Positions 6,588 through 58,089 are shown, numbered from the stretch's first letter. The stretch is 64,000 bases of DNA from Alphaproteobacteria bacterium (GCA_009691025.1 SHWB01000007.1:28231-92230), one strand, 5' to 3'. Notes: generated from the letters alone by a model not told the origin. A program made the numbers and translations.

Positions 6588-8345
6588 ATGGGCTTGAGCA
6601 AGAGCGCCGCCACCGCCGCTGGCACGATGGGCGAGCCGCGCGAAGCGGTGACCCAGCTTCGTGCCGAACGCGACCGGTTCGTGGCGCTGGCCTTCACCAG
6701 CGCCGACATCCTGATGGAGATTGGCGAGGGCGCTATCGTCGCCTTCGCGGCCGGCGCGATCAAGGCCTTCGTCGGCCGCCCCGACGACGTGCTGGTCGGC
6801 AGATGCTTTCTATACTGCGTGGTGAAATCCGACCGCGCGGTGGTCGATGGGCTGTTGCACAACGCGCGACGCGGCACGCGCATCGACAACGTCGCCGTCC
6901 GCCTGGTTGGCACGGCCGGTGAGACGCCGTCGCTGTCGTTGTTGGGCTTCCACATGCGCGAGCTGGGCGGCCACACTTACCTGTCGCTGCGCATGGCGCC
7001 GGTGCCGCGCGTGATCGATGTCGATTCGGTCGGCAGCATGCCCGACAGCACCGTGCTCGACAAATCCTCCTTCGCCAACGCCGCGACGCGCGCCGTCGAG
7101 GATGCGCGCGCTTCCGGAGAGGACAGCCGCCTGACCCTGCTCGACCTCAACAATTTCGTCGAGCTGCACGACCGCCTCGGCGAGGAAGCGCGCCAGGATC
7201 TGGAGCAGACCCTCGGCGCCACGCTGCGCGCCAGTTCTCTGCGCGGCGACACGGCGGCGCAACTCACCGAGGAGAAGTTCAGCCTCGTCCGCAGCATGCA
7301 TCGTGACGTGAAGGGCATGGCGCGGGAGAGCGAGACGGTGGCGCGCGCCGCCGATCCCGACGGCCAAGGCGTCCGCATAGCCAACCGCACCGTCGACGTC
7401 GACACGACACAATTGTCCGAGCAGGATGCGGTGAAGGCGCTCGTCTACACCATCAACCGCTACTGCGACACGACGCCCGAGGCCTTCAGCTTCCGCCCCC
7501 TGACGGAAAGCCTGTCGGTGCTGGCCGACGAGACGGTCGAGAAGATGGGCCGCTACGGCAAGCTCATCGAAGTGTCGAACTTCGAGGTTGCCTTCCATCC
7601 GATCTGCGACCTGCTGACCGGCCAGCCGCATTATTTCGAGGCGCTGGTCCGCTTCGACAAGAGCGTCGGCGCCTCGCCCTACGAATTCATCACCTTCGAC
7701 GAGGAAGTCGGCCTTATCTGCGAGTTTAACCTCGCCATGTGACGCAAAGTGCTGGAATTGGTGCGCGGGGCCAACGGGGCCGGCCACAAATACATGGTGG
7801 CGGTGAACATGTCGGGCCGCTCGCTGTCGACGCCGTCCCTCGTTGAGGCGATGCTGGCCATGCTGCGCGGCGCCGGCAAGGCGCGCGAGAACGTGCTGTT
7901 CGAGATCACCGAATCGGCGAAGCTCGACAATTTTCCGGAGGCCAACAACGTCATCCAGGGGCTGTGCAACGGTGGCAATATCGTCTGCCTCGACGATTTC
8001 GGCGCCGGCGTGTCGGCCTTCCAGCACCTGTTGGCGTTGCATATCGACGTGGTGAAGATCGACGGCGGCTACGTCCACAACGCCATCCGCAACGTGCGCT
8101 GCAAGGCGCTACTGAAGGCGATGGCCGGCATGTGCCGCGACCTGTCGATCACCACCATTGCCGAGATGATCGAGCGCGAGGAGGTCGCCCGCCTCGTGCA
8201 CGAATGCGGCATCGAGTACGGCCAAGGCCATCTCTACGGCAAGCCGCCCAAATACATCGACCAGTTCGCCGCGCCGCGGCCGGTGCCTTTCGACGCCGTG
8301 CCGATGCGTCGGCCGGGACCCGCCCGCAACGGCACGGAGGGCTGA
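6588..8345 (+). pseudogene. PAS-like / degenerate GGDEF / EAL c-di-GMP phosphodiesterase-type protein interrupted by an in-frame TGA at 7740-7742
   Basis: EALVRF motif and the following EAL block GLICEFNLAM[TGA]RKVLELV continue in the same frame, so the ORF track splits one gene into 6102..7742 and 7749..8345; GGDEF-like region lacks the GG(D/E)EF motif. Confidence 0.65.
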
Positions 8346-8351
8346 CGCCCG

Positions 8352-9074
8352 ATGCCGCACGCGCAGGGTGCCGCGATCGAGCCTCCCGAACCGCTGCTGC
8401 GGCCGCCGCCGCACGTCATGCCGGCGACCGCGCAGGCGCTGGTTTCGGGCTGGCCGGGCGCCGTGATCGTCTATGGCGGCGACGCCCGTATCGTCGCCGC
8501 CAATGGCGACGGCGCGCGGCTTGCCACCAGCCTCGGCAGCCCGGCCGCCCCGCTGACGGCGCTCGTCCGCCGCGCCGCCACGGGGACGGCCAGTATCGTC
8601 GAGCGTCTCGACATCGCCACGGCGAGCGGCCGGCAATGGCATCTGTGCGCGGCCATGCTGCTCGACAGCGGCATCGTCTGCGTGCTGGCGCGCGACGGAT
8701 CCTACGATGTGAACATCCGCAACGCGCTGGTCGATTCGCGCCAGCGCTAACGCGACCTCGTCACTATCTCCAGCGATTTCGTCTGGGAAACGGGCGAGGA
8801 CGGCCGCTTCGTCTTCGTCTCGCCGCACGGCGCGCTGGGCCTAAGCACCGACGAGCTGGTCGGCCGGCATCCGCGCGAACTGGAGATCGATCCCGCCGAT
8901 CCGGCGAGGCTGCGCCCCTTCGCCGCCGCTGACCCGATCGAGAACGCGCAGATCTGGGTGCGCGCCGCCGCCGGGGCCGAGGCCTGCGTGCTGGCCAGCG
9001 CCATGCCGGCGCGCGCCCGCGACTGGCGCCGGAGAGGCGCGCGCGGCCTCGTGGCGCGCATCGCCGACGACTAA
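8352..9074 (+). pseudogene. PAS-domain protein interrupted by an in-frame TAA at 8748-8750
   Basis: PAS-like sequence continues in frame across the stop: ...NALVDSRQR[TAA]RDLVTISSDFVWETGEDGRFVFVSPHG...; 6-nt gap to the upstream EAL gene (operon). Confidence 0.5.
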
Positions 9075-9264
9075 TTCGCGCTGTGGCTGGACGGCGCCGC
9101 GCTGGACGAAGGCGAGCGTCGCGCCGAGGACATTATCGAGACGGTGGTGGGCCTGCGCGAATGCGCGCCCAGCGCTGCCAAGCCGCTCGGCGCCTCCGTC
9201 TGAGGAGCGGCCGCAGGCCGCGTCTCGAAGGACGGGGCCCGGCGGTGGAAGCCGGGCGCGCGCC

Positions 9265-10176
9265 TCAGAACCCGCGCCAGATGGCCGTGCCGGCGCCGTG
9301 TTCGGTGAAGACTTCGAGCAGCACCGAATGTTCCGACCGGCCGTCGATGATGACGGCGGCCTCGACATTGGCCTCGACGGCGGCCATGCAGGTCTCGATC
9401 TTGGGGATCATGCCGCCGCTGATCGTGCCGTCCGCGACCAGGTCGCGCGCCTGCTCGACGGTGAGGTCGGTGATGAGCTTGCCCGATTTGTCGAGCACGC
9501 CGGCGACATCGGTCAGCATCAGCAGGCGTGTCGCCTTCACCGCCGCGGCGACGGCGCCGGCCACGGTGTCGGCGTTGATGTTGTAGGTCTCGCCGTCCGG
9601 CCCGACGCCGATCGGCGCGATTACCGGGATGATATGCGAGCGCGCGAAGACGTCGAGGATGCGGGCATCGACATGCTCGGGCTCGCCGACGAAGCCGAGG
9701 TCGAGCACCTTCTCGATGTTGCTGTCGGTATCGCGCTTCGTGCGCGTCATCTTGCGCGCGCGGATCAGGCCGCCATCCTTGCCCGACAGGCCGACCGCGG
9801 TGCCGCCGGCGGCGCCGATGGCGGCGGCTATCTGCTTGTTGATGGTGCCCGACAGCACCATCTCGACGATCTCGACGGTGGCGGCGTCGGTGACGCGCAG
9901 CCCGTCGACGAATTCGCTCTTGATCTTCAGGCGCTCCAGCATGCGGCCGATCTGTGGGCCGCCGCCATGCACCACCACCGGATTGATACCGATCTGCTTC
10001 AGCAGCACGATGTCGCGCGCGAAGGAATGCGCGACCGATTCGTCGCCCATGGCATGGCCGCCATACTTGACGACGAAGGTGCGGCCCGCGAAGCGGCGCA
10101 TGTAGGGCAGCGCCTCCACCAGGGTGGCGGCCTTGCCGATCAGCTCGGCGGCGGCGGGTGCGGGTTTGTCCGCCAT
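9265..10176 (-). CDS. argB: Acetylglutamate kinase
   Basis: Full-length amino-acid kinase with the typical ArgB N-terminus ([16 protein letters not shown]) and C-terminus. Confidence 0.9.
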
Positions 10177-10248
10177 GACGGTCTCGTTCCCCTGGATGTT
10201 GCGACGCAGGCGACGTTAGTGCAAATCGGCCGGGCGCGGAATCCTCCG

Positions 10249-16008: not shown

Positions 16009-16144
16009 CAGGACAAGAGGCCGCAGGGGGCCACAGGGGCCGCATTAGCGCGCGATGTGCTATGAACGATTCATGTCCGGAATCGCACGCATTGACGTGC
16101 CGCCCCTGACGCATTCGCTGTAGGCGCGCCTGCGGGCGCTGACG

Positions 16145-17425
16145 GTGGCGTTAGTCATGCTGGCGGAAGGGCTGATCTACCTGCCGTCGATCGCCAATTT
16201 ACGAGTCAACGGGCTGACCGAACGCGTCGCCGCCGCGCGTCTCGCCGCGCTGGCGATAGAAACCACGCCGGAGGGCGGAATCGCCGGCGGCACCAAGGCC
16301 GAGGTGCTGCGGCTGTCCGGCGCCAGCGCCATCGTGCTCTCACGCCCCGACCGCCGCGTGCTGCTGTTCGTTGACGTGCCGCCGCCGGTCGAGGTCGTCG
16401 TCGACCTGCGCCGGCGCTCGGTGCTGCCGCCCGTCGGGGCGGCGCTCTATTCGATGCTCTTCGGCCGCGACCGCACCATGCTCGCGATCGCCACGTCGCA
16501 TGGCGAACCGGACCTCGTCGTGGAGATCGTGCTCAACGAGGCGCAGCTCTGCGCGTCGATGCTGGCCTATTCGCGCAACGTGCTGCTGCTGTCGATCGCG
16601 ATCTCGCTAATCACCGGCGTGCTGCTCTACCTCGTGCTGCTCGGGCTGGTGGCGCGGCCGCTCGGCCGCATCGCCGGCGGCGTCGCCGATTTCGCGCGCG
16701 CGCCGCAGGACGAGCGAGCCGACGTCGACCCGACCGAGCGGCGCGATGAACTCGGCGTCGTGCAGCAGGCGCTGGGCGGCATGCAGCGCGACGTGCGCGC
16801 CGCGCTCGGCGAACGCGCGCGCCTCTCCGCCCTCGGCTCGGCGGTCGGCAAGATCAACCACGATTTGCGCGGCATCATGTCGACGGCGGTGTTGCTGACC
16901 GACCGGCCGGAGACGCTGGAGCAGCCGGAAATGCGGCGTCTCACCGGCCGTGCCAACCAGGCCATCGACCGCGCCATCGGCCTGTGCACGCAGACGCCCG
17001 ATTTTGCACGTGACGCCGGCCCGTCGCTGGAACGCGCGCGCTACCGTCAGCGCTACCTCGTTGTCCGGGTCGCCGACGAACTCGCCATCCTCGCCGGCAG
17101 CGCTCGCGGGCCGGGAGCTCGGCTGGTCAACGAGATTCCGATCGCCACGGTCGTTGAGGCCGACCACGAGCAGCTCTGGCGCGTCTTCGCCGACCTCGCC
17201 CGCAACGCCTTCGAGGACGGCTCGACCGCCGTGCATGTGAGCCTCTGATCGGGCGACGCCGCGCCGGCGGTCTTCGCCATCGCAGTCGCCGATGACGGCC
17301 CCGGCCTCGGCCTCGCCATCGGCCGCGACGTGATGCGCGCGCACGACGGCGATATCGTCCTGCTATCCACCGGCGACCCGGGGACGGTTTTCAGGCTGAC
17401 GTTGCCCGCTCCGCCCGGCACGTAA
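16145..17425 (+). pseudogene. Sensor histidine kinase interrupted by an in-frame TGA at 17246-17248
   Basis: H-box INHDLRGIMST, N-box LARNAFEDGSTAVHVSL[TGA]SGDAAPAVFAIAVADDGPGLGLAIGRDVMRAHDGDIVLLSTGDPGTVFRLTLP; the G1/G2 ATPase boxes follow the stop in the same frame. Confidence 0.65.
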
Positions 17426-19595: not shown

Positions 19596-20054
19596 TCACC
19601 GGCCCCGGTGAAGCAACCGCGGGTCAGACAAGCGCCTTGACGAGATCGGGCGGCGCGGGCCGGCCCCCGGCCGCCTCTCGTGGCGGCTCTGGCGGCCGAG
19701 TTCGACACGCAGGTTGTGGCCGCTGACCGCGCGGGCCTGTTCCTCCATCGCCGCTGCGAGGCGACTGGCGGTCTGGCCGCCGGCGCCGAGATCGGCGGCG
19801 GCGAGGTTTTCGGCCACCAGAGGCGGGCCTTCCAGCAGCCGGTCGACGCGACGCCAGGAAAACAGGGCGTGCAGATAGCCGTCCGGCGTCTCCAGCACGG
19901 TGATGCCGGTCTCGCCGGGCGATTGCTGGCCGGCACCCATCGCGAAGGCGCGCCAGCGCCCGACGCTGAGGGCCGGGTCGAGGGCGCGCACGAGGGCGAA
20001 GGCCCGTTCGAGGCGTTCGGGCGGCAGGCGGCGAGCGACGAGGCGGGTGTGCAT
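19596..20054 (-). CDS. Hypothetical protein (possible acyltransferase-like fold)
   Basis: ORF with coding-like composition, divergent from the fnr-like gene; FNR/FixK box immediately upstream. Confidence 0.35.
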   Translation of the reverse strand: MHTRLVARRLPPERLERAFALVRALDPALSVGRWRAFAMGAGQQSPGETGITVLETPDGYLHALFSWRRVDRLLEGPPLVAENLAAADLGAGGQTASRLAAAMEEQARAVSGHNLRVELGRQSRHERRPGAGPRRPISSRRLSDPRLLHRGR

Positions 20055-20215: not shown

Positions 20216-20974
20216 ATGACCCTGGGCGAGACTCACGGCCGGCCGGCGGCGAACCAGCCCGATTGCTGCGATGGCGGCGGCCTCAGCGCCGCCTGCCGCG
20301 TTTGTACGGTACGGCCGAGCGCGGTCTGCGCGACCCCCGACGATGGTTAGCTCGCGCGCCTCGACGCCATCGCGGCGCGGGTGACGGCCGCGTTCGGCAC
20401 CGACATCTTCCGCGAGGGCGAGCCCGCCGGGGCGCTCTACAACCTCACCGCCGGCACCGTGAAACTCTACAATATGCTGCCCGACGGCCGCCAGCAGGTC
20501 GCCGGCGCCCTGTTTCCCGGCGACTTCCTAGGCCTCGCCATGAACGATGCCTACGCCCATACGGCCGAGGCGATGGACGACGCCGCCCTCTGCCGCTTCC
20601 CGCGCGGCCGCTTCGAGGGGCTGCTGGAGCGCATCCCACGCCTCGAGTACCGCCTGCTGGCGATGGTTTCGAACGAACTTGCCCAGGTCCAGGACCAGAT
20701 GCTGCTGCTCGGCCGCAAGAATGCGACCGATAAGATCGCCAACTTCCTGCTGCAGCTGTCGCGCCGCCAGGCGGCGCGGAGAGAGCCGGCAAACCCGGTG
20801 CGCATGCCGATGGGCCGCACCGACATCGCCGACTATCTCGGCCTGACCACGGAGACCGTCAGCCGCACCCTCACCAGCCTCAAGACCGGCGGTCCGATCC
20901 GCCTGCTGCACGGCAACTCGGTGGAGCTGCGCGACCGCGCCGCCCTGGAGGCGCGGGCCGGGGGCGGATCGTGA
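20216..20974 (+). pseudogene. fnrN: FnrN/FixK-family CRP/FNR transcriptional regulator interrupted by an in-frame TAG at 20348-20350
   Basis: Upstream of the ORF-track start the same frame encodes the FNR N-terminal Cys cluster CRVCTVRPSAVCATPDDG[TAG]LARLDAIAARV, then the cNMP-binding (IFREGEPA) and HTH (TDIADYLGLTTETVSRTL) regions. Confidence 0.65.
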
Positions 20975-21031
20975 GGGCCTCGTCCTTCGACAGGCTCGCC
21001 TCACCCTGAGCCTGTCGCAGGGCGAGGCGAG
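20974..21031. repeat. REP/MITE-like palindromic element (family 1), short copy
   Basis: GGCCTCGTCCTTCGACAGGCTCGCCTCACCCTGAGCCTGTCGCAGGGCGAGGCGAGCC between the fnrN-like gene and the M20 remnant. Confidence 0.45.
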
Positions 21032-21100: not shown

Positions 21101-21529
21101 ATGCTCGAGACAGTGGCCGACCGCCTGCTCGCCGCCATCGCCGCACGGCGCGACGATGTGGCGAAACGGACTTCGGAGCTGGTGCGCATTCCCTCGGTCA
21201 ATCCGCCCGGCGAGGCCTATGCCGAATGCTGCGAGGCGCTGGCGCTGCGGCTCGGCAATCGGCGCTTCCGCTGCGATTACCTGCGCGCCGAGGGCGCGCC
21301 GGGCTACAGCGACGCCCATCCGCGCCTCAACATCGTCACCCGTCGCGAGGGCGCGCGGCACGGGCCCTGCGTGCATTTCAACAGCCATATCGACGTCGCC
21401 GCCGCCGGCCAGGGCTGGACGGCGGACCCCTTCGGCGGCGAGATTTGCGACGGCATGGTCTGGGGCCGCGGCACGGCCGACATGGATGGTGGCCTCGCCG
21501 CCGCGCGCCTGCTGGGGACGCTCGCGTGA
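21101..21529 (+). pseudogene. Truncated M20-family peptidase (ArgE/DapE-like), N-terminal 142 aa only
   Basis: Ends just after the conserved GRGTADMDGG block (GRGxxDMKG equivalent); M20 peptidases are about 380-400 aa; the stop overlaps the GTG start of the next gene. Confidence 0.55.
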
Positions 21530-22551
21530 TCCTGCGCACCGGCGCGCGCAACCTGCTAACCGACGTTCCCGGACTCGTGGTCGGCAACGCGCAGGACGAG
21601 GCGATCCGCAGCGGCGTGACTGTGGTGTTGTCGGAGGACGACGACTTCGTCGCGGCGGTCGACATCCGGGGTGGTGGCACCGGCACGCGCGAGACGGCGG
21701 CCCTGGCGCCGGAGGGCGTCGTGCCAGCGGTGCACGGCATTGTGCTGTCGGGCGGTTCGGCCTTCGGCCTCGATGCGGCCGGCGGCGCCATGACCTGGCT
21801 GGCCGCGCAGGGGCGCGGCTTCGCTGTTGGCGCGGCGCGCGTGCCGGTAGTACCGCAGGCGATCCTGTTCGACCTGCTCAACGGCGGCGACAAGGGCTGG
21901 GCGGTGCGGCCGGATATGGCCAACCCCTATCGCGCGCTCGCCGTCGCGGCCTGCGCGGCGGCCGGCGCCGACTTTGCCCTCGGCACCGCCGGCGCGGGTT
22001 ACGGCGCCATGGCCGGGGGCCTCAAGGGCGGGCTCGGCAGCACCTCGATCGTGCACGAATCCGGTCTGACGGTAGGCGCGCTGGCGGCGGTGAACGCGCG
22101 CGGCTCGGTGCTGCTCGACGGCAGCGCCGCATTCAACGCCTGGGCGGTCGAGCGCGACGGCGAGTACGGCGCCGTGCCTCCGCCCGTAGCACCCCTGCCC
22201 GATCCCGACTGGAACCTCGCCGGCGCGCGCCTGCCGGCCAACACCACGCTCGCCATCGTCGCCACCGACCTCGCTCTGGACAAGGCGCAGGTGCAGCGCC
22301 TCGCCACGATGGCGCAGGCTGGCCTCGCCCGCGCCATCCGCCCGGTGTGGACGCCGCTCGACGGCGACGTGGTGTTCGCCGTCGCCACTGGCCGGCGCGC
22401 GCTGCGCGACCCCGTCGGTGACCTCGCGCTGGCCGGCGCGCTGGCGGCCGACTGTCTCGCCCGTGCCGCCGCGCGCGGTGTCTACAAGGCGAGCGACCTC
22501 GGCGCGATGCGCTGTTACCGGGAGATTTACGGCTCGGACGATGCGACCTAG
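21526..22551 (+). CDS. DmpA/OAT-type (S58/P1 family) L-aminopeptidase / D-esterase
   Basis: N-terminus RNLLTDVPGLVVGNAQDE...GVTVVL and overall S58-like pattern; GTG start at 21526 (GTGA overlap). Confidence 0.7.
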   Translation: MILRTGARNLLTDVPGLVVGNAQDEAIRSGVTVVLSEDDDFVAAVDIRGGGTGTRETAALAPEGVVPAVHGIVLSGGSAFGLDAAGGAMTWLAAQGRGFAVGAARVPVVPQAILFDLLNGGDKGWAVRPDMANPYRALAVAACAAAGADFALGTAGAGYGAMAGGLKGGLGSTSIVHESGLTVGALAAVNARGSVLLDGSAAFNAWAVERDGEYGAVPPPVAPLPDPDWNLAGARLPANTTLAIVATDLALDKAQVQRLATMAQAGLARAIRPVWTPLDGDVVFAVATGRRALRDPVGDLALAGALAADCLARAAARGVYKASDLGAMRCYREIYGSDDAT

Positions 22552-22639
22552 TGCTTTCCGGGCGCAGTGGACTCTCTTGTGTGGCCGGGTCGCGCCCGGC
22601 TTTCTGGTGGTGCCGCTCGTATTCGGGCCGCCACTTGCC

Positions 22640-22885
22640 TTCTTGAGGCTTTGCCGTCCTACGAAACCCATCGACTGGCCAAAATTTTCGGCGCTTCTGT
22701 TATTGTTTCTATAGTAGCGTATCCATTAGTATTGTTTATGGGTGTTCCCCCGTTCTTTGTGCTGAAAGCATGCAAGAGAGATGGAATTTTAAGGTATTTT
22801 CTGACAGGATTAGATCTAGGTGCATGTTTTTTCTTCTTGATGGCGCGTGCTTCGATACCGGACTCCCCGCGTCCTTTCTTTCTCT
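22640..22885. other. Low-GC (about 40%) islet with small ORF(s) encoding a predicted 2-TM peptide
   Basis: Sharp composition drop relative to the roughly 65-70% GC flanks; ORF 22567..22887 (hydrophobic segments IVSIVAYPLVLFMGVPPFFVL, LGACFFFLMA) uses atypical codons. Confidence 0.3.
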
Positions 22886-23197
22886 AATGCAGCTTGGCGC
22901 TGGCGGCGCCTTGACCGCCGGGCTGTTCTGGCTGATCGCCGGGCCCGACGGCGTCGACGCTCGGCTCGGCAGTGACCGAGCACTTGCTTACGGCGACTTG
23001 CCGGAGGCGGCGCAGGGAAGCAAGGCTGGGTAGAGCCGCCGCACCTCTACCGTTGCGGTTCGACCACCACCGTGCCGATCTTGTCGCCGATTTCGACCAA
23101 CTCGTGCGCGGCGGCGCAGTCGGCGCGCGGGAAGCGCGCCGCCGCCTGCGGTTGACCTTTGTCGGCGGGCGCCGAACGATGCGCCACAGGAGATCGC

Positions 23198-26099: not shown

Positions 26100-26387
26100 A
26101 TGACCGCCTACTAAGACAGGCTCGACCCCATCGCCCGCGCCATCATCGAGGCGCTTTCCGCGCGCCCGGCGGGCGCCTCGATCGCCGGCGAGGAGGTGGC
26201 GCAGGCTATCGCCGAGAAGCGCCGCCGCCCGGCCGACCCGCCCGATCTGTGGCGGCGCTTCCTGCCGGCGGTGCGCCAGCAGGCCCTGCATTTCGCGCGC
26301 GCCGGCCGCATCGAATTCCTGCGCAAGGGCAAGCCGGCCGACCCGGAAGCCGTCAGGGGCGCCGTGCGCTACCGGCTGGCGAGCTGA
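26100..26387 (+). pseudogene. DUF3253-family protein with an in-frame TAA at codon 5 (26112-26114)
   Basis: MTAY[TAA]DRLDPIARAIIEALSARPAGASIAGEEVAQAIA...[42 protein letters not shown]: the full DUF3253 domain is in one frame with ATG at 26100, and no canonical start exists between the stop and the conserved domain. Confidence 0.45.
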
Positions 26388-28098: not shown

Positions 28099-28174
28099 GG
28101 GGCCGTAGCTCAGTTGGGAGAGCGCCTCGTTCGCAATGAGGAGGTCAGGGGTTCGATTCCCCTCGGCTCCACCA
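28099..28174 (+). tRNA. tRNA-Ala (anticodon CGC)
   Basis: Cloverleaf with GGGGCCG acceptor stem, G3:U70 alanine identity pair, anticodon loop tTCGCAa, TPsiC arm GGTTCGATTCC, encoded CCA. Confidence 0.9.
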
Positions 28175-28209
28175 CTCTCTTTCATGACATTCGCACAGAA
28201 TTGACGGAG

Positions 28210-28229
28210 CCGGCGGAAGCCGCCGGTTT
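28210..28229 (+). terminator. Hairpin (CCGGCGG-aag-CCGCCGG) followed by a short T tract downstream of tRNA-Ala
   Basis: Perfect 7-bp GC stem with a 3-nt loop and TTT; a second longer inverted repeat lies at 28272-28319. Confidence 0.3.
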
Positions 28230-28369
28230 CCGCCACTTTCGCGCCCGCTTTCAGGGCAAACCTTGGCAGAGACGCCGCTGATCGGTGGCTGAAGCCGCCT
28301 TTTGGGGCCGGCGTCTCTGTAGCCCCTTTTCCGCAGCCAACACTTCGCCATGACTGTCTGTAACCCCTC

Positions 28370-28900
28370 TCAGGCAAAGCCGAGCAGGCGGCGCTGATCG
28401 GCCCAGAGGGCCGGCAGATCAGGCCCACGCTTGAGCGCGGAGACCGTGAGTTCGACCGGCTGCCGGCCGGCCAGGATCGCCTCGACGATGTCGGGGGCGA
28501 GGAAGGCCAGCGGGAGGATACGGCTCGCATCTCCATGGTCGATGCCATGGCGCCGCGCGAGATCGCGGATCGAGGCTACCGCGCCATCCTTGATCTCCCC
28601 GAACCAGGCGTGCGCCTGGGCGGTCAGGGAGATGAGTCGACCGTCGGGCGTTGGCGGCTGTCCCTTGCCAGGGATGACCAGTTTCGTTTCGGCGCCGCGG
28701 CGCCGGGTGGAGATCGGACACTCGATCGCCAACGAAACGGTGGTTGCGGTGGCCGACCTCTCCTGCACCTGTTCGCCCTCTACACGGAGCTTCGCCCGAA
28801 GGCGGCCTCGGCGGACCGTGATGCGGAGATGCTGCTCGTCTGGCCCGAGCTCAAGGCGAAGCCGGCCGGGAGAGGGTGCACCGAGCCGCCATCTGCCAAG
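28370..28900 (-). pseudogene. Remnant (C-terminal portion) of a serine-recombinase-family protein adjacent to tRNA-Ala
   Basis: C-terminal tail ...[49 protein letters not shown] resembles a conserved tail of resolvase/recombinase proteins of alphaproteobacterial mobile elements; no catalytic N-terminal domain recognisable. Confidence 0.35.
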
Positions 28901-29637
28901 TTCCCGACGCCGTCCGGCGACGAGCCAGATCAGATCCGGAAACCGACGAAGCCACGGCATGGCATCTGGCCGCCCGCACGCGGCCTCGTACTGCGCAAGT
29001 TCGCGAAGGATCATCCGATCCCATTGTGGCAGCCAGACTTCCCCGCAGCACTGACCGATCCTGCCGGCACGCGCGATTCGCGCTTCACGATCGAGGCCAC
29101 AGCAGTCGCCGTCTGCGCAGGGCCGACGGCCTACGGTGCTCGCCGGCCGTAGCACAGCCGGCAAAACCACACGACGCAGGATCTGAACCTCGCCCATTGG
29201 CTCCTGCTGCCGCTGTGCGAGGACGAAGAAGAGCTTGAACTGACACTGCGTGTCGCGCGCCACCGGGCAAGCCGGCTTGTCACCGAGGACCGGGCGCAGT
29301 TGTGCATTGCGAGGTTGGCAAAGGTCCTGCTGGACCGACGATGCCTCTCCAAAGCGGAACTTGAATGCTGGCTCGACGCCGCAGTCTGCAGACCCCGGAA
29401 AACACGGCCTATGGCTCGGCCCCACCGGGTTCCGCCCCTCAAGTGCTACGAGCTACATCGAGGCTGACCAGCCTGAACGGTCTCACCTTCCGAACGAGCG
29501 TCCTGCGGCCCATTGCATGCGGGTTCGCAGAGGGATCAAATGCTCATCAAACAGGCCTCCAGCGCCCGCTGCCTCGCCTGACTTCGGCCTCGATTGGGGA
29601 AGCCTTGGACCAGACACTGAACGCACCGGCGCCGGCG

Positions 29638-30831
29638 ATGCCGACCTCTTATGCCGACATCAAGCGCGCCGCCGAGGCGCTGGTGCCGCTGATCGAGGCC
29701 GAGGCCGACGAGGCCGAGCGCCAGTACCACCAGTCCGACAAGGTGGTCGACGCCTTCCGCAAGGACGGTATCTACACGATGCTCGGACCGCGCGGGAACG
29801 GCGGCGCCGAGCTGGCCTATGTCGATGCCATGCGCATCGCCGAGCGCCTGTGCCACGCTGACGGCTCGACCGGCTGGTGCGCCATGGTGATGAACGTGCA
29901 CGCCGCCTCGGCGGGCGCCTTCCTGCCACAGGCCGGCATTGACATCGTCTACCCCAACGGCGCCGACGTGCTGGTGGCCGGCCAGGGCGTGCCGCGCGGT
30001 TACGCGCGCGCCGTCGATGGCGGCTACCAGGTGAAGGGCCTGTGGAGCTACGGCAGCGGCATCTGGCACGCCGAATGGGTGCATTCCGGCTGCTTCGTCA
30101 TGGACGGCGAGATGATGCGGCGCGACGCGCATGGCCGCCCGGTCGTCGTCGTCGTGCATCACCCGATGGCCGACGCCGAGCTCAAGGGCAACTGGGACGT
30201 CCTCGGCCTGCGCGGCACCGGCAGCTACGACTACGCCATCAAGGGCGGCGGCGAGATCTTTATCCCGCACCACCTCTGCTACTGGGGCGAAAACCCGCCG
30301 GTCGAGCGCGGTGGCGTGCAATATGCCGGCGGCTTCGTAGCCATGGCCAACTGGGGCCATACGAGCTGGGCCATGGGCATGGGCCGCCGCGTGCTCGACG
30401 AGCTGGCGGCCAATGCGCGCGCCCGCACCGACGTGTTCGGGCCGCTGCACAAGAGCACCACCTTCCGCGCCCAGTTTGCCGAGGCCGAGGCCAAGTACCG
30501 CGCCGGCCGGGCGCTGACCTACGAGTCCTGGGAAGACCTCTGCGAGAGCTTCGCCCAGGGCAAGTCGGCGACGGTGGAACAGTTCGCGCTGATCCGGCTC
30601 GCCATGCGCCACATGCACGATGTCATCTCGGAGATCGCGACCTTTGCTCATCGCGCCTCGCGCGGCGCGAGCCTGCGGCCCTGCCGCCTGCAACGCGCCT
30701 ACCGCGACATCCACTCCGGCACGCAGCACATCCTGATGGCCGACGAAATCTACGCCGAGTGCGGCCACGCGCTGCTCGGCACGCTCGGGCCCAACGCCAA
30801 GTGGACACTGCTCGGCCTGACGGACGATTAA
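29638..30831 (+). CDS. Acyl-CoA dehydrogenase-like flavin-dependent monooxygenase/oxidoreductase (ACAD type 2 family)
   Basis: About 397 aa with ACAD-fold blocks (GWCAMVMNVH, LRGTGSYDY); ATG at 29638. Confidence 0.65.
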   Translation: MPTSYADIKRAAEALVPLIEAEADEAERQYHQSDKVVDAFRKDGIYTMLGPRGNGGAELAYVDAMRIAERLCHADGSTGWCAMVMNVHAASAGAFLPQAGIDIVYPNGADVLVAGQGVPRGYARAVDGGYQVKGLWSYGSGIWHAEWVHSGCFVMDGEMMRRDAHGRPVVVVVHHPMADAELKGNWDVLGLRGTGSYDYAIKGGGEIFIPHHLCYWGENPPVERGGVQYAGGFVAMANWGHTSWAMGMGRRVLDELAANARARTDVFGPLHKSTTFRAQFAEAEAKYRAGRALTYESWEDLCESFAQGKSATVEQFALIRLAMRHMHDVISEIATFAHRASRGASLRPCRLQRAYRDIHSGTQHILMADEIYAECGHALLGTLGPNAKWTLLGLTDD

Positions 30832-31446
30832 CGCTTACGTCGGCAGCACCGCACGCTCCCGCCGGAGAGAAGCTCACCGGTGGGCTGGCTGGCGAGTGAA
30901 CGGCGAACGACGATGCGACCGGTGCCGTGGGAGCCATTGGTTCCGCGCGCGTTCAGCTGTTGCGGCTCGACGCCGACATCCCGCGATCGATCAAGGGGGA
31001 GGGCCGTGCCAGAGACCTCCGTTACGCTCTTCGGAGACCTCTCCAAACCTGCCAGCACACTGGCCGAGAAAATCCTGGAGGCATTGGGCGCGTGTCTTGG
31101 CCACGGCAGCTACAGCGTGTTGCTGCAGCCGACGCCGGTGTCACGGAAGTCAGGGCCACGGCAGAAGCGGCTGCGAGGCTCATTCTCAAGCGAGCCGAGA
31201 TCGAGGCGGACGATCTTACGCTTCGCTCGTCCCACTTTCGTGCCGCCGGCGAAACTGCCCGTCCCGGGGGCGACGCACAACTCGGCAGCGCCCGGTGTCC
31301 GCGCGCCACGGCGTCTGCTCAGCCTCAAGGTCTTGATCTGCATACGAAAAGCGCACGGGTGAGGCCGGGTGGACGGCGGTTACTGGCGCTCTCTGTCCTG
31401 ATGTGCCGTCTGCCTGTTCGCTGTCGGCCAAGCCCCGCTCGACGGG

Positions 31447-31585
31447 AGGAAATACCCTGTTTTGGGCGTTTGAATTCCCTGTTCCTGGTCCTAGGGAATT
31501 CGGCCCGAAACCGCAGTGTTATCCGTGGGTTGTACCGGGGCAATTCGCCTCTGATGGCCCGAAGGCAAAGGAATTCCCTGTTCCT
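31447..31585. repeat. Iteron-like direct repeats GAATTCCCTGTTCC (2 perfect copies plus degenerate copies) in a lower-GC non-coding stretch
   Basis: Perfect 14-mers at 31473-31486 and 31571-31584; degenerate AATACCCTGTT at 31451 and GGAATTCGGCC at 31494. Confidence 0.4.
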
Positions 31586-31731
31586 TCGCCGGAGTACCGA
31601 CTGCTCTCAACGGAGACGGGTTAGCTCCTGCCTCTCAGCACCACCAATTCCTTGCCCGCCCGCGCGCGGATCGGCTGCCGCAAACCCTGTTTGCCGGGCC
31701 CCCGGTCGTTCGGCGGGGCAAGGCGGCCCGC

Positions 31732-32604
31732 TCAGGCGGGCCGGCCCGGTTCCGGCGGCGGGGTGAAGATCATGTCGCGCCGCACGGCGTCGAGATCGGC
31801 GCAGCCCAGCATGGCCTGGGCGTTGGCCAGCTCGTCGCGCAGCAGGCCGGCGGCGCGCGCCGCGCCGGCCTTGCCGCCGGCCGAGACGCCATAGAGGAAG
31901 GCGCGGCCGGCGAAGCAGAAATCGACGCCGAGCGCGATGGCCTTCAGGATGTCGGAGCCGCGCCGTATGCCGCCGCCGAAGAGCAGCGGCCGGGCCTCCG
32001 GCACCGCCTGCCGCACCTCGCACAAGCTGTCGATGCTGGCGGGCATGAAGTCCAGCCGGTTGCCGCCGTGGTTCGACACGACGACCGCGTCGGCGCCAGC
32101 CGGCAGGCCGTCGCCACGTCTCCGGGGGCGAAGCAGGCCCTTGATCACCAGCTTGCCGCGCCAGTGCGCGCGGATGCTCTCCATGTCGCTCCACACCAGG
32201 GTGGGCGGCCACACGGTGGCGAAGAAGCGCAGGATGTCCGTCGGCGAGCTGCCGGGCGGCGCATAGGGCTGCCAGCTCTCCGCCGCCGGCATCCCGCCAT
32301 TGGCGAGGAAGCGGCACAGCCAGTCCTGGTGGCTCAGCAAATTGGTGAAGATTCCCGGCCATTTGCGCCAGTCGATCCCGCCGCGCAGCGACACGCCGGT
32401 GCGCAGCGGCACCTCGCTGCGGTTGGCCACCGGGTAGTTCACCGCGACGGCCAGCACCTCGACTCCGGCATTGCGCGCCTGCGCCATCATCCCCTCGGTG
32501 ATGGCGTGGGCCTTCGCCGGATAGATCTAGCTCAAGACCTGCCCGGGCGCGATGCGGGCAACGGTCTCGCTCGCCGCCTCCGACATCACCGGCTTACGCC
32601 CGCG
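31732..32604 (-). pseudogene. FMN-dependent alpha-hydroxy acid dehydrogenase (LldD/glycolate oxidase family), N-terminally truncated with an in-frame TAG at 32527-32529
   Basis: C-terminal 252 aa carry VVVSNHGGNRLD and the FMN-binding end; homology continues upstream in frame across the TAG (...IAPGQVLS[TAG]IYPAKAHAITEGMMAQARNAGVEVLAVAVN) and is then lost in the low-GC insert at about 32600. Confidence 0.5.
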
Positions 32605-32982: not shown

Positions 32983-32983
32983 C

Positions 32984-37238: not shown

Positions 37239-38542
37239 ATGGTCGACCCGCGGCATTTTCGCTTCCAGACCTTGGCGCTGCATGCCGGCCAGCAGCCGGA
37301 TCCTGTGACGGGTGCGCGCGCCCAGCCGATCTACCAGACCACCTCCTACGTCTTTCCCGATGTTGACCACGCGGCGAGCCTGTTCAATCTCGAACGGCCG
37401 GGCCACATCTACAGCCGCATCTCCAACCCTACTGTCGCCGTGTTCGAGGAACGGGTGGCGGCACTCGAAGGCGGCGTTGGCGCGGTGGCGACGGCGAGCG
37501 GCCACGCGGCGCTCGTGCTCGCCGTCACGACGCTGATGGGCACCGGCGGGCACATCGTGGCCTCGCGTGCCCTCTATGGTGGAAGCCACAATCTGTTCGG
37601 CCACACCCTGCCGCGCTTCGGCATCACGACGACGCTGGTCGATCCGCGCAAGCCGGAGGATTTCGCTGCGGCGATCCAGCCCGAGACGCGGCTGGTCTTC
37701 GCCGAGACCATCGGCAATCCCGGCCTCAAAGTGCTCGACATAGCCGCGGTGGCGAAAGTGGCGCACGGCGCAGGATTGCCGCTGCTGGTCGATGCGACCT
37801 TCACGACGCCGGCGCTGCTGCGCCCGTTCGAGCACGGCGCCGACCTGATCCTGCATTCGGCGACGAAATGGATCGGCGGCCACGGCGTTGCCATCGGCGG
37901 CGTGCTGGTCGATGGCGGCCGCTTCGATTGGGAGGCGTCGGGCAAATTCCCCACGCTGACCGAGCCCTATGCCGGCTATCACGGCCTCGACTTCGCCGAG
38001 GAGTTCGGGCCGGCCGCCTTCGTCATGCGCGCCCGCGCCGAGGGTCTGCGCGATTTCGTCGCCTGCATGGCGCCGCAGACCGCCTTCTATCTGCTGCAGG
38101 GGCTGGAGACGCTGCCGTTGCGCATGGCGCGCCACGTCGCCAATGCGCGCTCCGTGGCGACTTTCCTCGAACGCGCCGAGGAGGTGGCGTGGGTAGCGTG
38201 GCCCGACCTCGAAAGCCACCCGGACCACGCGCTGGCTCAGCGCCTGCTGCCCGACGGGCCGTGCTCTATCGTCACCTTCGGCATCCGGCCGGGCAAGGCC
38301 GGCGCGCGCGCGCCGGCGCGAAGTTCATCGAGGAGCTCGGCCTGTTCTCCCACCTCGCTAATGTCGGCGACGGCAAGTCGCTGGTCATCCACCCGGCGAG
38401 CACGACGCACCAGCAGATGAGCGCCGACGACCTCGCCCGCGCCGGCGTCGGCGAGGAACTGATCCGCCTGTCGATCGGCCTCGAACACGAGGACGATCTG
38501 ATCGACGATCTGCGCCAGGCGCTGCGCGCCTCGCAGCGGTGA
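37239..38542 (+). pseudogene. metY: O-acetylhomoserine aminocarboxypropyltransferase (sulfhydrylase) with a frameshift in a (GC)n run near 38300-38312
   Basis: PLP-enzyme blocks intact through ...[17 protein letters not shown] in frame 0, then continue ...[35 protein letters not shown] in frame 2 (ORF 37868..38542); the shift lies in ggcgcgcgcgcgccggcgcg. Confidence 0.7.
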
Positions 38543-38594
38543 GACGGAATGAAACGGATCGCGCACGGCCAGCGCTTCCCCCACCTCTGCCCAA

Positions 38595-38677
38595 CCCTCT
38601 CCACCCCCCGGGGCGGAGAGGGGACAGCTTGGTCATTGCGACCGCGTGCCCTCTCCGCCCTTGATGGCGGAGAGGGA
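38595..38677. repeat. Two tandem GC-rich hairpins of the CCCTCTCC...GGAGAGGG family (REP/terminator-like)
   Basis: CCCTCTCC-acccccggggc-GGAGAGGG at 38595-38623 and CCCTCTCCGCC-cttgat-GGCGGAGAGGG at 38649-38677, between metY and the hydrolase gene. Confidence 0.5.
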
Positions 38678-38745
38678 CAGGGTGAGGTGGGTGCTGCCGC
38701 CATACCGGTCGCATCGGCTTCGTGCCGGTTCGGGAGAACGTAATC

Positions 38746-39547: not shown

Positions 39548-40251
39548 CCGACGATGCCAAGGCCGAGCGCAATCTGCGCCGCGCCGATTACCGTCACTTC
39601 CTCGCCGTGCCGACGCGCTGGATGGACACCGACGTCTATGGCCACGTCAACAACGTCACCTACTATTCCTACTTCGACACGGTGGTGAACGAGTTCCTCG
39701 TGCGCTTCACCGGGCTCGACTTCCGGGCGAAGGGGCCGGTAGGCATGGTCGGCGAGACCGGCTGCCGCTTCCACAGCGAGATCGCCTTTCCCGATGTGCT
39801 CGAGTCGGGTCTGCGCGTGCGCCGGCTGGGCAAGACCTCGGTGACCTACGAGATCGGCATCTTCAAGGCCGGCCGCCAGGCACCGGCGGCGACCGGCCAT
39901 TTCACCCATGCCTATGTCGTACCCGGCGACATGCGCGCTGTGCCGGTGCCCGAAGCCGCCCGGGCCGTGCCGGAAACGCTAGTGGTTACGGGGTGGCGCC
40001 GCCTTTGCCTCCCCCGCTGCGCGGGGGAAAGATTCATATGCTTCGGCGCAGCGGCACCAGCAGGCCGGCGGCGAAGAGGGTGGCGGCGGCGACGACGATG
40101 GACGGTCCGGTCGGCGTGTCCCAGGCGAAGGAGAAGGCGAGGCCCATCGCCACGGAGAGCGAACCGACGAGCGCCGCGAGGATCGCCATCGCCTCCGGCG
40201 TGGCGGCGAGGCGGCGCGCGGCGGCGGCCGGCACGATCAGAAGTGACGTGA
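39544..40251 (+). CDS. 4HBT/YbgC-like acyl-CoA thioesterase; no stop at the expected C-terminus, the ORF runs about 240 nt into the convergent znuB
   Basis: Hot-dog thioesterase motif WMDTDVYGHVNNVTYYSYFD; the domain ends near ...PVPEAARAV (about 39975) but the frame stays open over Arg-rich antisense of znuB. Confidence 0.5.
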   Translation: MTDDAKAERNLRRADYRHFLAVPTRWMDTDVYGHVNNVTYYSYFDTVVNEFLVRFTGLDFRAKGPVGMVGETGCRFHSEIAFPDVLESGLRVRRLGKTSVTYEIGIFKAGRQAPAATGHFTHAYVVPGDMRAVPVPEAARAVPETLVVTGWRRLCLPRCAGERFICFGAAAPAGRRRRGWRRRRRWTVRSACPRRRRRRGPSPRRANRRAPRGSPSPPAWRRGGARRRPARSEVT

Positions 40252-45427: not shown

Positions 45428-45465
45428 CCCCTCCCTCTCCGCCCCCGGAGGTGGAGAGGGAGGGG
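45428..45465. repeat. GC-rich hairpin of the CCCTCTCC/GGAGAGGG family
   Basis: CCCCTCCCTCTCC-gcccccggaggt-GGAGAGGGAGGGG perfect 13-bp stem. Confidence 0.5.
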
Positions 45466-46867: not shown

Positions 46868-46925
46868 CGCCCGCACACTCGTCCTCGTCCTTCGACAGAC
46901 TCAGGATGAGGACGAGTGTGCGGGC
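46868..46925. repeat. REP/MITE-like palindromic element (family 1)
   Basis: 18-bp stem GCCCGCACACTCGTCCTC ... GAGGACGAGTGTGCGGGC around GTCCTTCGACAGACTCAGGATGAGGAC. Confidence 0.5.
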
Positions 46926-47913: not shown

Positions 47914-48048
47914 CCAGGCATCCTCGTCCTTCGACAGGCTCAGGATGAGGATGCCTGGCTCGGTCGTTGTGTGACCGCCTCACCCTGAGCGTCCTCACCC
48001 TGAGGAGCCGCCGCAAGGCGGCGTCTCGAAGGGCGAGGGGCGAGGCGG
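47914..48048. repeat. REP/MITE-like palindromic element (family 1), full copy
   Basis: GCCAGGCATCCTCgtccttcgacaggctcaggatGAGGATGCCTGGC followed by CCTCACCCTGAGCGTCCTCACCCTGAGGAGCCGCCGCAAGGCGGCGTCTCGAAGGGCGAGGGGCGAGG. Confidence 0.55.
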
Positions 48049-51925: not shown

Positions 51926-52049
51926 TCGTCCTCATCCTTCGACAGGCTCAGGATGAGGACGATGGGTGGCGGCGTTACAGGATTGCCTCACCCTGAGCCT
52001 CCTCACCCTGAGGAGACGCCGCCAGGCGGCGTCTCGAAGGGCGAAGGGC
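51926..52049. repeat. REP/MITE-like palindromic element (family 1), full copy
   Basis: GTCGTCCTCATCCttcgacaggctcaGGATGAGGACGAT plus GGATTGCCTCaccctgagcctcctcaccctgaggagacgccgccaggcggcgtctcgaagggcgaagggcGAGGCAATCC. Confidence 0.55.
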
Positions 52050-56086: not shown

Positions 56087-56360
56087 CGAAACGTCCTGTT
56101 GTTCGCCCGCACAGTGCCGCGCGCGCGTCCTGCGGGCAAGGCCGGGGTGGTTGCGCCGGACGGGCTGGCGGCTAGGATGCGCGCCGCGCGTCCGGCTGCG
56201 GGCGCCGTTCAGGAGGAACGATCGCATGGCGCGGGCGAAGGACGATCTGCTCGGGGCGAGGGAGCTGGCCGAGATGTATGCAGAGAAGGCCGCCGGCACG
56301 CACGCCTGGCCGATGGGCAGGGATGCCGCCGGCGCCATCATGTACACGTAGGACGGCACC

Positions 56361-56654
56361 ATGAGCGCCACGGTCGTCGCCGCCGGCCGCGCCGCGCCCG
56401 GGCCGAACGGCGATGCGGCGGCGAAGGCGGCTGCCTATGCCAGCCACTTCAACTACGTGGCGCGCCGGCGTCTCGACGGCGAGGTCGTGGTGCACACCAT
56501 CGAGCATGAGCTCGACCCGGAGATGGTCGGGATGGAGTTGCGGCGCGCAATCGAGCATCTCGGCGACGTCATGTATTTCCGCGGCGCCAGCCCGGATGGG
56601 ACGGCCAGCGTCATCGTCTGGCGCCGCAGGCCTGTGACCGCCGGGAAAGGCTGA
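56361..56654 (+). CDS. Hypothetical protein (97 aa)
   Basis: Open frame with coding-like composition; preceded in the same frame, 3 codons upstream, by a 41-aa ORF (56226..56351) ending in TAG. Confidence 0.3.
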   Translation: MSATVVAAGRAAPGPNGDAAAKAAAYASHFNYVARRRLDGEVVVHTIEHELDPEMVGMELRRAIEHLGDVMYFRGASPDGTASVIVWRRRPVTAGKG

Positions 56655-56753: not shown

Positions 56754-57389
56754 ATGCTTGACTTCTACACATGGCCGACGCCCAACGGGCGCAAGGTGGC
56801 GATCTTCCTCGAGGAAGCGGGGACGCCGTACAATCTGAAGCCCGTGAACATCGGCAAGGACGAGCAGTTCGCGCCCGATTTCCTGGCCATCAGCCCGAAC
56901 AACAAGATTCCGGCCATCGTCGACCACGACAATGGTGACTTACCGCTGTTCGAGTCCGGCGCCATCCTGCTGTACCTGGCCGAGAAGGAAGGCAAGTTCC
57001 TCTCGACCGATCGCAAGAAATACTGGCGCACGATGGAATGGCTGATGTGGCAGATGGGTGGCGTCGGCCCCGTCTTCGGCCAGGTGCATCATTTCGTGCA
57101 CTACAACCACGGCAAGGCGCCCTACGCCGAGGAGCGCTTCGCCGCCGAGGCGCGCCGCATCTACGGCGTGCTCGACAAACGCCTGGAAGGCCGCGAATAC
57201 GTCGTCGACGACTACTCGATCGCCGACATGGCGGTCTGGCCCTGGGCCGCGCGCCACAACTGGCAGCAGGTCAATCTCAACGACTTTCCCAATGTGCGCC
57301 GCTGGTACGTCGCCCTCGCCAACCGCCCGGCCGTGCAGAAGGCCTGGCGCATCCCGGAGAACACCCAGCCCCTGCCGATGCCGGAGTAG
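56754..57389 (+). CDS. Glutathione S-transferase (YfcG/YghU-like)
   Basis: GST fold; GGAG RBS; T8 tract right after the stop. Confidence 0.8.
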   Translation: MLDFYTWPTPNGRKVAIFLEEAGTPYNLKPVNIGKDEQFAPDFLAISPNNKIPAIVDHDNGDLPLFESGAILLYLAEKEGKFLSTDRKKYWRTMEWLMWQMGGVGPVFGQVHHFVHYNHGKAPYAEERFAAEARRIYGVLDKRLEGREYVVDDYSIADMAVWPWAARHNWQQVNLNDFPNVRRWYVALANRPAVQKAWRIPENTQPLPMPE

Positions 57390-57436
57390 GTTTTTTTTCC
57401 TCGCCCATGTGGAGAGGGCTTCCGGCATTGGCGCTG

Positions 57437-57531
57437 GACCGCCTCGCCCTTCGACAAGCTCAGGGTGAGGCGGTCAAGTAGCACCTGTGTTCCCAATCGG
57501 CCTCATCCTGAGCTTGTCGAAGGACGAGGCC
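57437..57531. repeat. REP/MITE-like palindromic element (family 1) with two inverted core copies
   Basis: GACCGCCTCgcccttcgacaagctcagggtGAGGCGGTC and GGCCTCatcctgagcttgtcgaaggacGAGGCC; the inner cores are reverse complements of each other. Confidence 0.5.
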
Positions 57532-57555
57532 GACCCACCACGGAACACGCAGCGT

Positions 57556-58089
57556 TCACATCCGCGCACGCTCGATCAATGCAGGCGTCTCGGCCATCGC
57601 CCTCGCTACGATGGCGGCGCAGGAGCGGGCGGCGGCCAGCGCGTCGTGGTGCTGCACGAGATCGATGCCCAGCGTCAGGCAGACATTTGGCAGCCGCGTC
57701 TGGCGGATGTTCAATGCCGCGCGCGCCAACTTTACCGTGCAGATGAAGCGCTTGCGCAATGGCGGCAAGCCGTAGCGCGCGGCGGTCGCGCGCTGCACGT
57801 TGCGGTCGAAGCCGGCGTTGTGCGCTGCGAGTAATTCGGCGCCGGCGGCGAAGCGGGCGATGGCCGGGTAATGGCCGGCTAAGTTGGGCGCTTCGGAGAC
57901 ATGCTCCCGGGCGATGCCGTGCAGCGCGGTGAAGCGCGGCACGAACCAGCGTTCCGGCTGGTGGATGGGCAGAGCCAGCTAGTCCGTGACGATCCCGTAC
58001 TCGACCCGCACGAGGACGAGGGCGCTGGCGCTGTCGGCGCTGTAATTGGCGGTCTCGAAGTCGATCGCCACGAAAACATGGTGCGGCAC
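57556..58089 (-). pseudogene. DnaQ-like 3'-5' exonuclease (DEDDh) interrupted by an in-frame TAG at 57979-57981
   Basis: Exo I motif VFVAIDFETAN in ORF 57979..58275 and Exo III motif HNAGFDRNV in ORF 57556..57942 are in the same frame, separated only by TAG (...VEYGIVTD[TAG]LALPIHQPERWFVPRFTAL...). Confidence 0.55.

Follow-up and report, generated by a model that had tools for sequence, protein, structure and literature searches.

Nonsense-rich pseudogenes in a chromosomal window of an uncultured alphaproteobacterium

About 10 of the approximately 66 genes located in a 64,000-nucleotide stretch of DNA from an uncultured alphaproteobacterium (GCA_009691025.1, SHWB01000007.1:28231-92230; hereafter, the window) are broken, many of them by in-frame nonsense codons. 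The affected genes, most of which lie between positions 6588 and 58089, encode proteins of cyclic di-GMP (c-di-GMP) turnover, a sensor kinase, a regulator of the oxygen-sensing Fnr type and several metabolic enzymes. As judged from comparison with related sequences, the broken genes are true pseudogenes, rather than artefacts or products of recoding. We propose, with a probability of about 0.85, that this lineage sheds accessory genes, especially those involved in sensing and regulation, by ordinary neutral decay, and that the nonsense-rich appearance of the decay comes from a mutation spectrum rich in G:C→T:A transversions. Neither read-through, nor recoding, nor sequencing error is needed to account for the pattern. 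Lineage-specific pseudogenization is a process already known from genomes in reductive evolution.

Broken genes and their intact orthologues

Two relatives were used as the main references. The nearest, found in the JGI metagenome 3300015615 (loci L165, L166 and L167), shares approximately 88-92% nucleotide identity with the window; the other, the metagenome-assembled genome (MAG) GCA_050246875.1 (loci L001, L161, L164 and L168), shares approximately 84%. The short contigs L162, L163 and L169 served as further references. Closer relatives were found only through members of 90% clusters, and a scan of JGI metagenomes with YidC returned one short relative (L081) and no contig of the same species. 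For each of the ten broken genes, one to four relatives carry the orthologue, at full length and in the syntenic position (loci L001, L161, L164 and L168 and/or L165, L166, L162 and L169; Table 1). Of about 50 genes open to comparison, about 10 are broken in the window, versus none in the relatives (Fisher p ~0.001, computed as 10/41 versus 0/41). The unusually high density of stops pointed out in the first-pass annotation of this DNA is, in this comparison, specific to the window lineage.

That annotation had listed seven genes split by an in-frame stop. All seven triplets are present, in frame within genes that are intact in relatives, and alignment with the relatives, which had been suggested as a check, allowed us to read the codon replaced at each of the seven positions. 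Family motifs had been reported to continue past the stops, as is evident from the single Pfam matches that cross them in the EAL (hidden Markov model (HMM) positions 8-236), FMN_dh and RNase_T (HMM 1-163) proteins. In the Fnr, PAS and DUF3253 genes, the stop is located upstream of the domain recognised by Pfam in read-through translations. Third-position G+C is about 0.9, in the same frame, on either side of the EAL, PAS and histidine-kinase (HK) stops. Four further stops (TAA 9072, TGA 9201, TAG 16121 and TAG 56349), the frameshift of a metY-like gene, an internal deletion in an M20 peptidase gene and the outright deletion of other genes are to be added to the list. The affected genes cannot be described as carrying a single stop, being otherwise intact and having no obvious secondary lesions, because several are multiply damaged. 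Multiple lesions are found in the PAS-GGDEF, HK, lldD-like and DnaQ-like genes; the EAL, Fnr, DUF3253 and lipocalin genes feature one each.

Changes were assigned to lineages by parsimony in a three-taxon alignment of approximately 26.7 kb. In the stop-bearing set, changes at codon positions 1+2 and at position 3 number 145 and 136 in the window lineage, and 45 and 135 in the relative (odds ratio (OR) 3.2, p=1.5e-8). The test covered six of the ten broken genes (EAL, PAS-GGDEF, HK, Fnr, M20 and DUF3253), and the ratio of position 1+2 to position 3 changes (p12/p3) in broken genes is 1.07 in the window lineage versus 0.33 in the relative. For instance, p12/p3 is 0.79 versus 0.13 in the GGDEF-EAL gene and 1.17 versus 0.59 in the Fnr gene. 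Since position 3 counts are equal in the two lineages, the excess is specific to amino-acid-changing positions; it extends over the whole length of the genes, and isolated base-calling errors cannot be its cause. Intact genes are mildly relaxed (OR 1.3, p=0.011, 22 kb), and 49 of them have zero internal stops in 14,530 codons. Identical truncated products are held by the NCBI, ENA and Logan assemblies. In the ENA consensus, the N-terminal fragment of the EAL protein differs at one residue and ends at the same stop codon.

Mutation spectrum and types of lesion

The window lineage differs from the relative in the share of C>A changes, which amounts to 18.5% versus 11.4% in intact genes (p=2e-5) and to 22% versus 8% in pseudogenes (p=1e-4). 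The excess is also found at third positions alone (OR 2.3, p=2.5e-6). Across site classes, the G:C→T:A excess over the sister lineage ranges from OR 1.8 to 3.1, and is about two-fold. In intact genes, 71% of the C>A excess falls at third positions, versus 43% expected for unselected errors (p=8e-8). Being concentrated at third positions, the excess is real and filtered by selection, and is not library damage. Lineage-specific changes in intact genes number 993 in the window and 828 in the relative, corresponding to a factor of 1.2.

G:C→T:A transversions turn GAG, GAA, TCG, TAC and TGC codons straight into stops, so that nonsense codons, of all three kinds, become the commonest small lesion. 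In the window, the frequency of these codons is 3.3% (GAG), 1.8% (TCG), 1.4% (TAC), 1.0% (GAA) and 0.7% (TGC). G:C→T:A changes account for 49-57% of the single-step routes to a stop under the window spectrum, and for 33% under the spectrum of the relative. Of the eight single-step stops, six or seven arose by a G:C→T:A change, and one, in the lldD-like gene, by a C→T change. The number of G:C→T:A stops agrees with the window spectrum (P=0.13-0.26), and poorly with that of the relative (P=0.018). In a neutral simulation in which 281 random substitutions were placed on the ancestral sequences according to the window spectrum, 5.4±2.3 stops were obtained, versus 6 observed in the same stretches.

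Small indels are few. Only five were found across the ten pseudogenes (a +1 and a -1 in the lldD-like gene, the metY-like frameshift and two 3-nt deletions), in contrast with approximately 4.6 small indels per pseudogene in the GC-rich Candidatus Burkholderia symbionts (PMC6054270). In 4.4 kb of aligned pseudogene sequence, 3-4 small indels are present versus approximately 10-15 expected at one-tenth of the neutral substitutions (Poisson P<=0.03), the one-in-ten ratio of indels to substitutions being taken from the same study. Larger deletions, from 66 nt up to several kb, are common. The first-pass view that lesions are substitutions rather than indels holds for small indels only, since deletions, the longest of 4.9 kb, occur frequently. 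Similarly, the pattern had been called atypical, and it is so in that small indels are scarcer than in GC-rich pseudogene sets (PMC6054270); the larger deletions, which are common, do not fit that description.

Proposed course of decay and alternative explanations

The data show that, after constraint on a gene has been relaxed, substitutions build up at all codon positions. Within a spectrum about two-fold richer in G:C→T:A transversions than that of the nearest relative, stops are the commonest small lesion, and larger deletions then erode the dead genes, with few small frameshifting indels. The shift in spectrum may stem from weakened repair of oxidised guanine, of the MutY/MutM type, or from more oxidative damage, and gene loss may result from a narrower or more stable niche with reduced effective population size. 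From position 1+2 rates, we estimate that the genes have evolved without constraint, on average, over approximately 40% of the branch that follows the split from the JGI relative, an estimate that argues against very recent inactivation, one of the options initially offered. Mycobacterium leprae, Sodalis glossinidius and the Candidatus Burkholderia leaf-nodule symbionts (PMC7067036, PMC6054270) are similar in that they have lineage-specific pseudogenes with intact orthologues, relaxed constraint, deletional erosion, a low density of intact coding sequence (74.5% in the window) and loss of regulators. Unlike these genomes, the window shows neither expansion of insertion sequences (IS) nor an evident fall in G+C, and its lesions are dominated by nonsense codons.

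Several considerations weigh against our interpretation. As to host restriction, the window contains no IS elements and shows no IS expansion, and its G+C content, 70.5%, shows no clear drop from the 70.7% and 71.5% of the relatives; a classic host-restriction scenario is therefore hypothetical here. Enrichment of regulatory genes rests on functional classes that were set post hoc, and the assignment of changes to lineages on parsimony with an outgroup at approximately 85% identity. When approximately 150 substitutions, the estimated neutral share, were simulated, 3.0±1.7 stops were obtained (P(>=6)=0.08); some excess of stops over simulation is expected, given that the presence of stops was the reason for choosing these genes. 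All results, the pseudogene load included, come from one 64-kb window. Finally, the NCBI, ENA and Logan assemblies may stem from the same sequencing runs.

It is very improbable that the genes are really intact, and that errors of assembly or base calling in a MAG of low quality created the stops. G-to-T changes are a known signature of oxidative library damage, which would suit such errors, and the source of the window is a MAG. Inflated counts of pseudogenes with internal stops mark poor assemblies, and the spurious pseudogenes described by Cooley and Wright 2024 (PMC11017572) resemble those of the window in the raised internal-stop count and in the draft state of the assembly. However, the lesions analysed here recur across NCBI, ENA and Logan assemblies, including a consensus that is not identical, and are confined to genes under relaxed constraint, several of which carry deletions besides stops. 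Moreover, the 3.2-fold excess of position 1+2 changes extends over the affected genes, the intact genes are stop-free, and the C>A excess in the latter has been filtered by selection. Just as little credence is merited by the production of full-length proteins, whether by read-through of the stops, by suppressor tRNAs or under an altered genetic code. Some stops are set in well-conserved surroundings, as in the EAL gene, in which flanking residues match those of the relatives, and in-frame stops within conserved domains are also a feature of recoding systems (UGA-Trp, UGA-Gly, selenocysteine and pyrrolysine). Unlike in such systems, three different stop codons are involved, and they replace six or seven amino acids (Cys, Tyr, Glu, Ser, Gln, Pro and possibly Gly at 9201) with no consistent meaning. 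All three codons also act as normal terminators of intact genes (36 TGA, 12 TAG and one TAA among 49), at positions shared with the relatives, and we agree with the first-pass annotation that neither simple codon reassignment nor selenocysteine fits the data. The affected genes are decaying under relaxed constraint, some being also truncated or frameshifted, and neither a suppressor tRNA nor an Rfam recoding element was found in the window, the only tRNA of which is tRNA-Ala(CGC). Of the three explanations originally offered for the stops, inactivation is thus retained, and the evidence contradicts both an artefact of assembly or base calling and translational read-through.

Within the domain of real gene loss, the loss of signalling genes (c-di-GMP turnover, oxygen sensing, two-component kinase) could have been positively selected in a new niche, rather than neutral. 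We regard this as unlikely, even though regulators are enriched among the broken genes (4/10 versus 3/52, p=0.01, under the post hoc classification), in agreement with the signalling bias noticed at the outset, and the hybrid sensor kinase of the relative (L165) is also absent. Early loss of regulators is also predicted by relaxed selection in reductive evolution; besides, non-regulatory genes (M20 peptidase, DUF3253, lldD-like, metY-like, lipocalin and exonuclease) decay too, and the stop count agrees with the neutral simulation. A long-term base-substitution mutator, defective in the repair of oxidised guanine (GO; mutY/mutM), might drive the nonsense-rich decay rather than colour it, a view that is possible but doubtful. 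A rise in mutation specific to base substitutions, such as that caused by a GO repair defect, would explain both the G:C→T:A stops and the low number of small indels relative to substitutions. The two-fold G:C→T:A excess is found in all site classes, and total substitutions are 1.2-fold above the sister lineage. A lineage-specific excess of G:C→T:A changes, and stops derived from GAG, GAA, TCG and TGC codons, are features shared with MutY/MutM-deficient mutators. The rise in total substitutions is modest, however, and a two-fold shift is small beside that of laboratory mutY mutants; the lineage is old, unlike transient clinical or laboratory mutators. Intact genes are still under clear purifying selection, and mutY, mutM and mutT lie outside the window. 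Somewhat less probable still, and put forward tentatively, is the idea of an environmental alphaproteobacterium, free-living or newly restricted to a niche, that a defect in oxidised-guanine repair has made a stable long-term mutator for base substitutions, and in whose GC-rich genome genes die mainly by G:C→T:A nonsense mutations and large deletions, with very few small indels. If true, this mutator mode of reductive evolution would differ from the frameshift- and IS-driven pattern of known symbionts.

Features of the window and significance for the lineage

Intact coding sequences make up 74.5% of the window, recognisable pseudogene remnants 14.3% and the rest 11.3%. The coordinates and lesions of the broken genes, and of two other features, are reported in Table 1.

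Table 1 Broken genes, remnants and insertion in the window. L-numbers denote the loci of the relatives and the short contigs listed in the text.
Feature	Position	Strand	Lesion or note	Counterpart in relatives
GGDEF-EAL pseudogene	6588..8345	+	TGA 7740 replaces TGC (Cys; TGC in both L166 and L001)	Intact, 585 aa, L001
PAS-GGDEF remnant	8352..9266	+	TAA 8748 replaces TAT/TAC (Tyr); TAA 9072; TGA 9201	Intact, 575 aa, L166
HAMP histidine-kinase (HK) pseudogene	16073..17425	+	TAG 16121 replaces TCG (Ser); TGA 17246 replaces TCG (Ser), two steps	Intact, 473-480 aa, L166, L161, L001
FnrN-type Crp/Fnr regulator pseudogene	20216..20974	+	TAG 20348 replaces GAG (Glu)	Intact, 252 aa, L165, L001
M20 peptidase pseudogene	21101..21529	+	Residues 1-135 left; internal deletion of ~850 nt	Intact, 427 aa, L165, L161
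Zinc-dependent alcohol dehydrogenase 3' remnant, 107 nt	23037..23142	-	blastn match to L161 8042-8148	Gene of 325 aa in the L001 genome
DUF3253 pseudogene	26100..26387	+	TAA 26112 at codon 5 replaces GAA/GAT	Intact, 95 aa, same ATG, L161, L162, L163, L165
3.5-kb insertion	28175..31721		Directly 3' of tRNA-Ala(CGC) (window 28099-31721)	Absent from L165, synteny breakpoints
lldD-like FMN-dependent hydroxy-acid dehydrogenase pseudogene	31732..32590	-	TAG 32527 replaces CAG (Gln)	Intact, 419 aa, L165
O-acetylhomoserine sulfhydrylase-like (metY-like, Cys_Met_Meta_PP) pseudogene	37239..38528	+	Frameshift in (GC)n run, ~38295-38310	Intact, 434 aa, L165
Lipocalin_5 pseudogene	56226..56654	+	TAG 56349 replaces CCG (Pro), two steps; Pfam match (HMM 5-113) crosses the stop	Intact, 142 aa, L164 and members of JGI and Logan clusters
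DnaQ-like (RNase_T family) exonuclease pseudogene	57556..58116	-	TAG 57979 replaces GAG (Glu)	Intact, 186 aa, L168, L169

Among the sensor and regulator genes, the PAS-GGDEF remnant is the site of deletions totalling approximately 2.6 kb, approximately 0.7 kb of which are internal and approximately 2 kb at the 3' end. The latter deletion also took the whole of the adjoining DUF2336 gene (429 aa in L166). The second stop hits the Glu of the GGDEF motif, which now reads ADD*F; the third is located at a deletion junction, and is of ambiguous origin, the replaced residue being possibly Gly. In the HK gene, a 66-nt in-frame deletion after 17293 removed the segment that separates the G1 box from the G2 box, and 3 nt are deleted at 17407; the HATPase_c match is restricted to HMM 72-110. 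The Fnr stop separates the N-terminal Cys cluster from the cNMP-binding domain. A tRNA-Leu(gag) called by ARAGORN at 20233-20319 on the minus strand, overlapping the 5' region of the Fnr gene, is without Rfam support and is probably a false positive. Close to the Fnr gene, a hypothetical open reading frame (ORF) of 152 aa (19596-20054, minus strand) contains no stop; with a p12/p3 of 2.1 in the window lineage, versus 0.29 in the relative, it could be either a cryptic pseudogene or a gene that evolves fast.

Among the other genes, the DUF3253 stop lies within a clustered change at 26106-26114, in which GCC GAA/GAT became TAC TAA through three or four changes in six bases, a pattern suggestive of one complex mutational event; no canonical in-frame start precedes a 63-aa remnant. 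The lldD-like gene has lost its first 135 codons, retaining residues 136-419, with an FMN_dh match that begins at HMM 97, and contains a compensated pair of indels, +1 at 32132 and -1 at 32099. For the metY-like gene, Pfam HMM 1-380 and residues 2-425 of PDB 7kb0 align only when the two frames are joined, and the split into 393 and 41 aa recurs in the ENA assembly. In the DnaQ-like gene, the catalytic Asp of the Exo III motif is also gone (HHDALADA changed to HHDALAAA). The dead exonuclease was considered as the source of the mutation spectrum and rejected for want of evidence: it is a stand-alone RNase_T-family protein of 186 aa rather than a demonstrated replicative proofreader, and a G:C→T:A signature is not what a loss of proofreading would be expected to leave.

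The window is a chromosomal piece with a G+C content of approximately 70%. A plasmid origin was rejected, as megablast of 24 kb against PLSDB returned short housekeeping matches only. Exact protein look-ups revealed that sequences of the window are also present in the ENA assembly ERZ1305449 and in Logan assemblies; the literature, searched by sample and assembly identifiers, yielded no relevant information on habitat. Genes found in the window include murJ, trpS, ribF, dapE, dapD, argB, engB, yidC, yidD, rnpA, argG and folD, along with znuABC, zur, ccmABC, yejABEF, pepA, trpF, pyrF, ihfB, sppA and rpsA. The block of transport and housekeeping genes at 44.4-57.4 kb is intact save for the lipocalin gene.

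Insertions and missing blocks are found next to some of the broken genes. The 3.5-kb insertion includes an acyl-CoA dehydrogenase-like gene and, at about 28.4-28.8 kb on the minus strand, a sequence without Pfam hit that resembles a C-terminal recombinase remnant; these features, directly after tRNA-Ala(CGC), suggest an island integrated long ago. The lldD-like gene has its 5' end replaced by 4.4 kb (32573-37002) that open with a low-GC stretch (third-position G+C ~0.53) and code for two monooxygenases, one luciferase-like and one flavin-dependent, and an alpha/beta hydrolase. A short distance downstream of these 4.4 kb, at 37175-37197, a 4.9-kb block of L165, comprising genes for a CHASE8 hybrid sensor kinase, a DUF4154 protein and a TonB receptor, is absent. 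Approximately 500 nt at 22530-23037 have no counterpart in L161 or L165, and neither coding signal nor Pfam hit; at this position the relatives feature the zinc-dependent alcohol dehydrogenase gene (L161), or DUF898 and M48 peptidase genes (L165). Six-frame Pfam scans of the non-coding-looking stretches at 22.5-23.7, 27.9-29.6, 30.8-31.8 and 32.5-33.0 kb, which had been suspected of containing eroded genes, revealed only a missed HIT gene.

Two families of palindromic sequences were observed. A repeat of approximately 37 nt, TCGTCCTCGTCCTTCGACAGRCTCAGGATGAGGACGA, similar to repetitive extragenic palindromic (REP) elements, is intergenic and present in at least six copies, in both orientations (46879-46915, 47918-47954, 51926-51962, 57438-57474, 57497-57533 and 20997-21029); when translated, it yields a recurring ILSLSKDED motif at ORF ends. 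The second element, with 46-nt arms (CCCTCTCCGCC...GGCGGAGAGGG), maps at 38580-38691, just past the metY-like gene, and has a related copy at 45433-45465. Two of the ORFs without stops are also unusual. In the 266-aa ribF product (2230-3030, minus strand), the N-terminal FAD-synthetase domain matches HMM 5-111 of 158 weakly (44.6 bits); the domain may be degenerate, in a region that is not covered by any relative. The 509-aa ORF at 38722-40251 joins alpha/beta hydrolase and 4HBT thioesterase domains, and could be a natural fusion, or two genes merged by loss of a stop.

The main practical value of these results is a corrected annotation of the MAG. In the public record, the fragments of the broken genes are deposited as separate, unflagged proteins (MSO80873-MSO80875, MSO80884, MSO80888, MSO80900, MSO80920 and MSO80922). 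For instance, a 'GGDEF domain-containing protein' of 384 aa, an 'EAL domain-containing protein' of 194 aa and an 'exonuclease' of 140 aa are listed, and the signalling and metabolic repertoire of the MAG is consequently overstated. The data describe a lineage, known from metagenomes only, that has lost proteins of c-di-GMP turnover, a sensor kinase, an Fnr regulator of the oxygen-sensing type and an enzyme of the methionine pathway, all of which are retained in its nearest relatives. They also illustrate that lineage-specific rates by codon position, obtained from three taxa, can tell real decay from assembly error without reads. The window offers a natural example of how a mutation spectrum shapes the type of lesion by which genes are lost. 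If the G:C→T:A skew were genome-wide, and tied to loss of mutY/mutM, the lineage would be a useful natural system for the effects of mutators on genome reduction.

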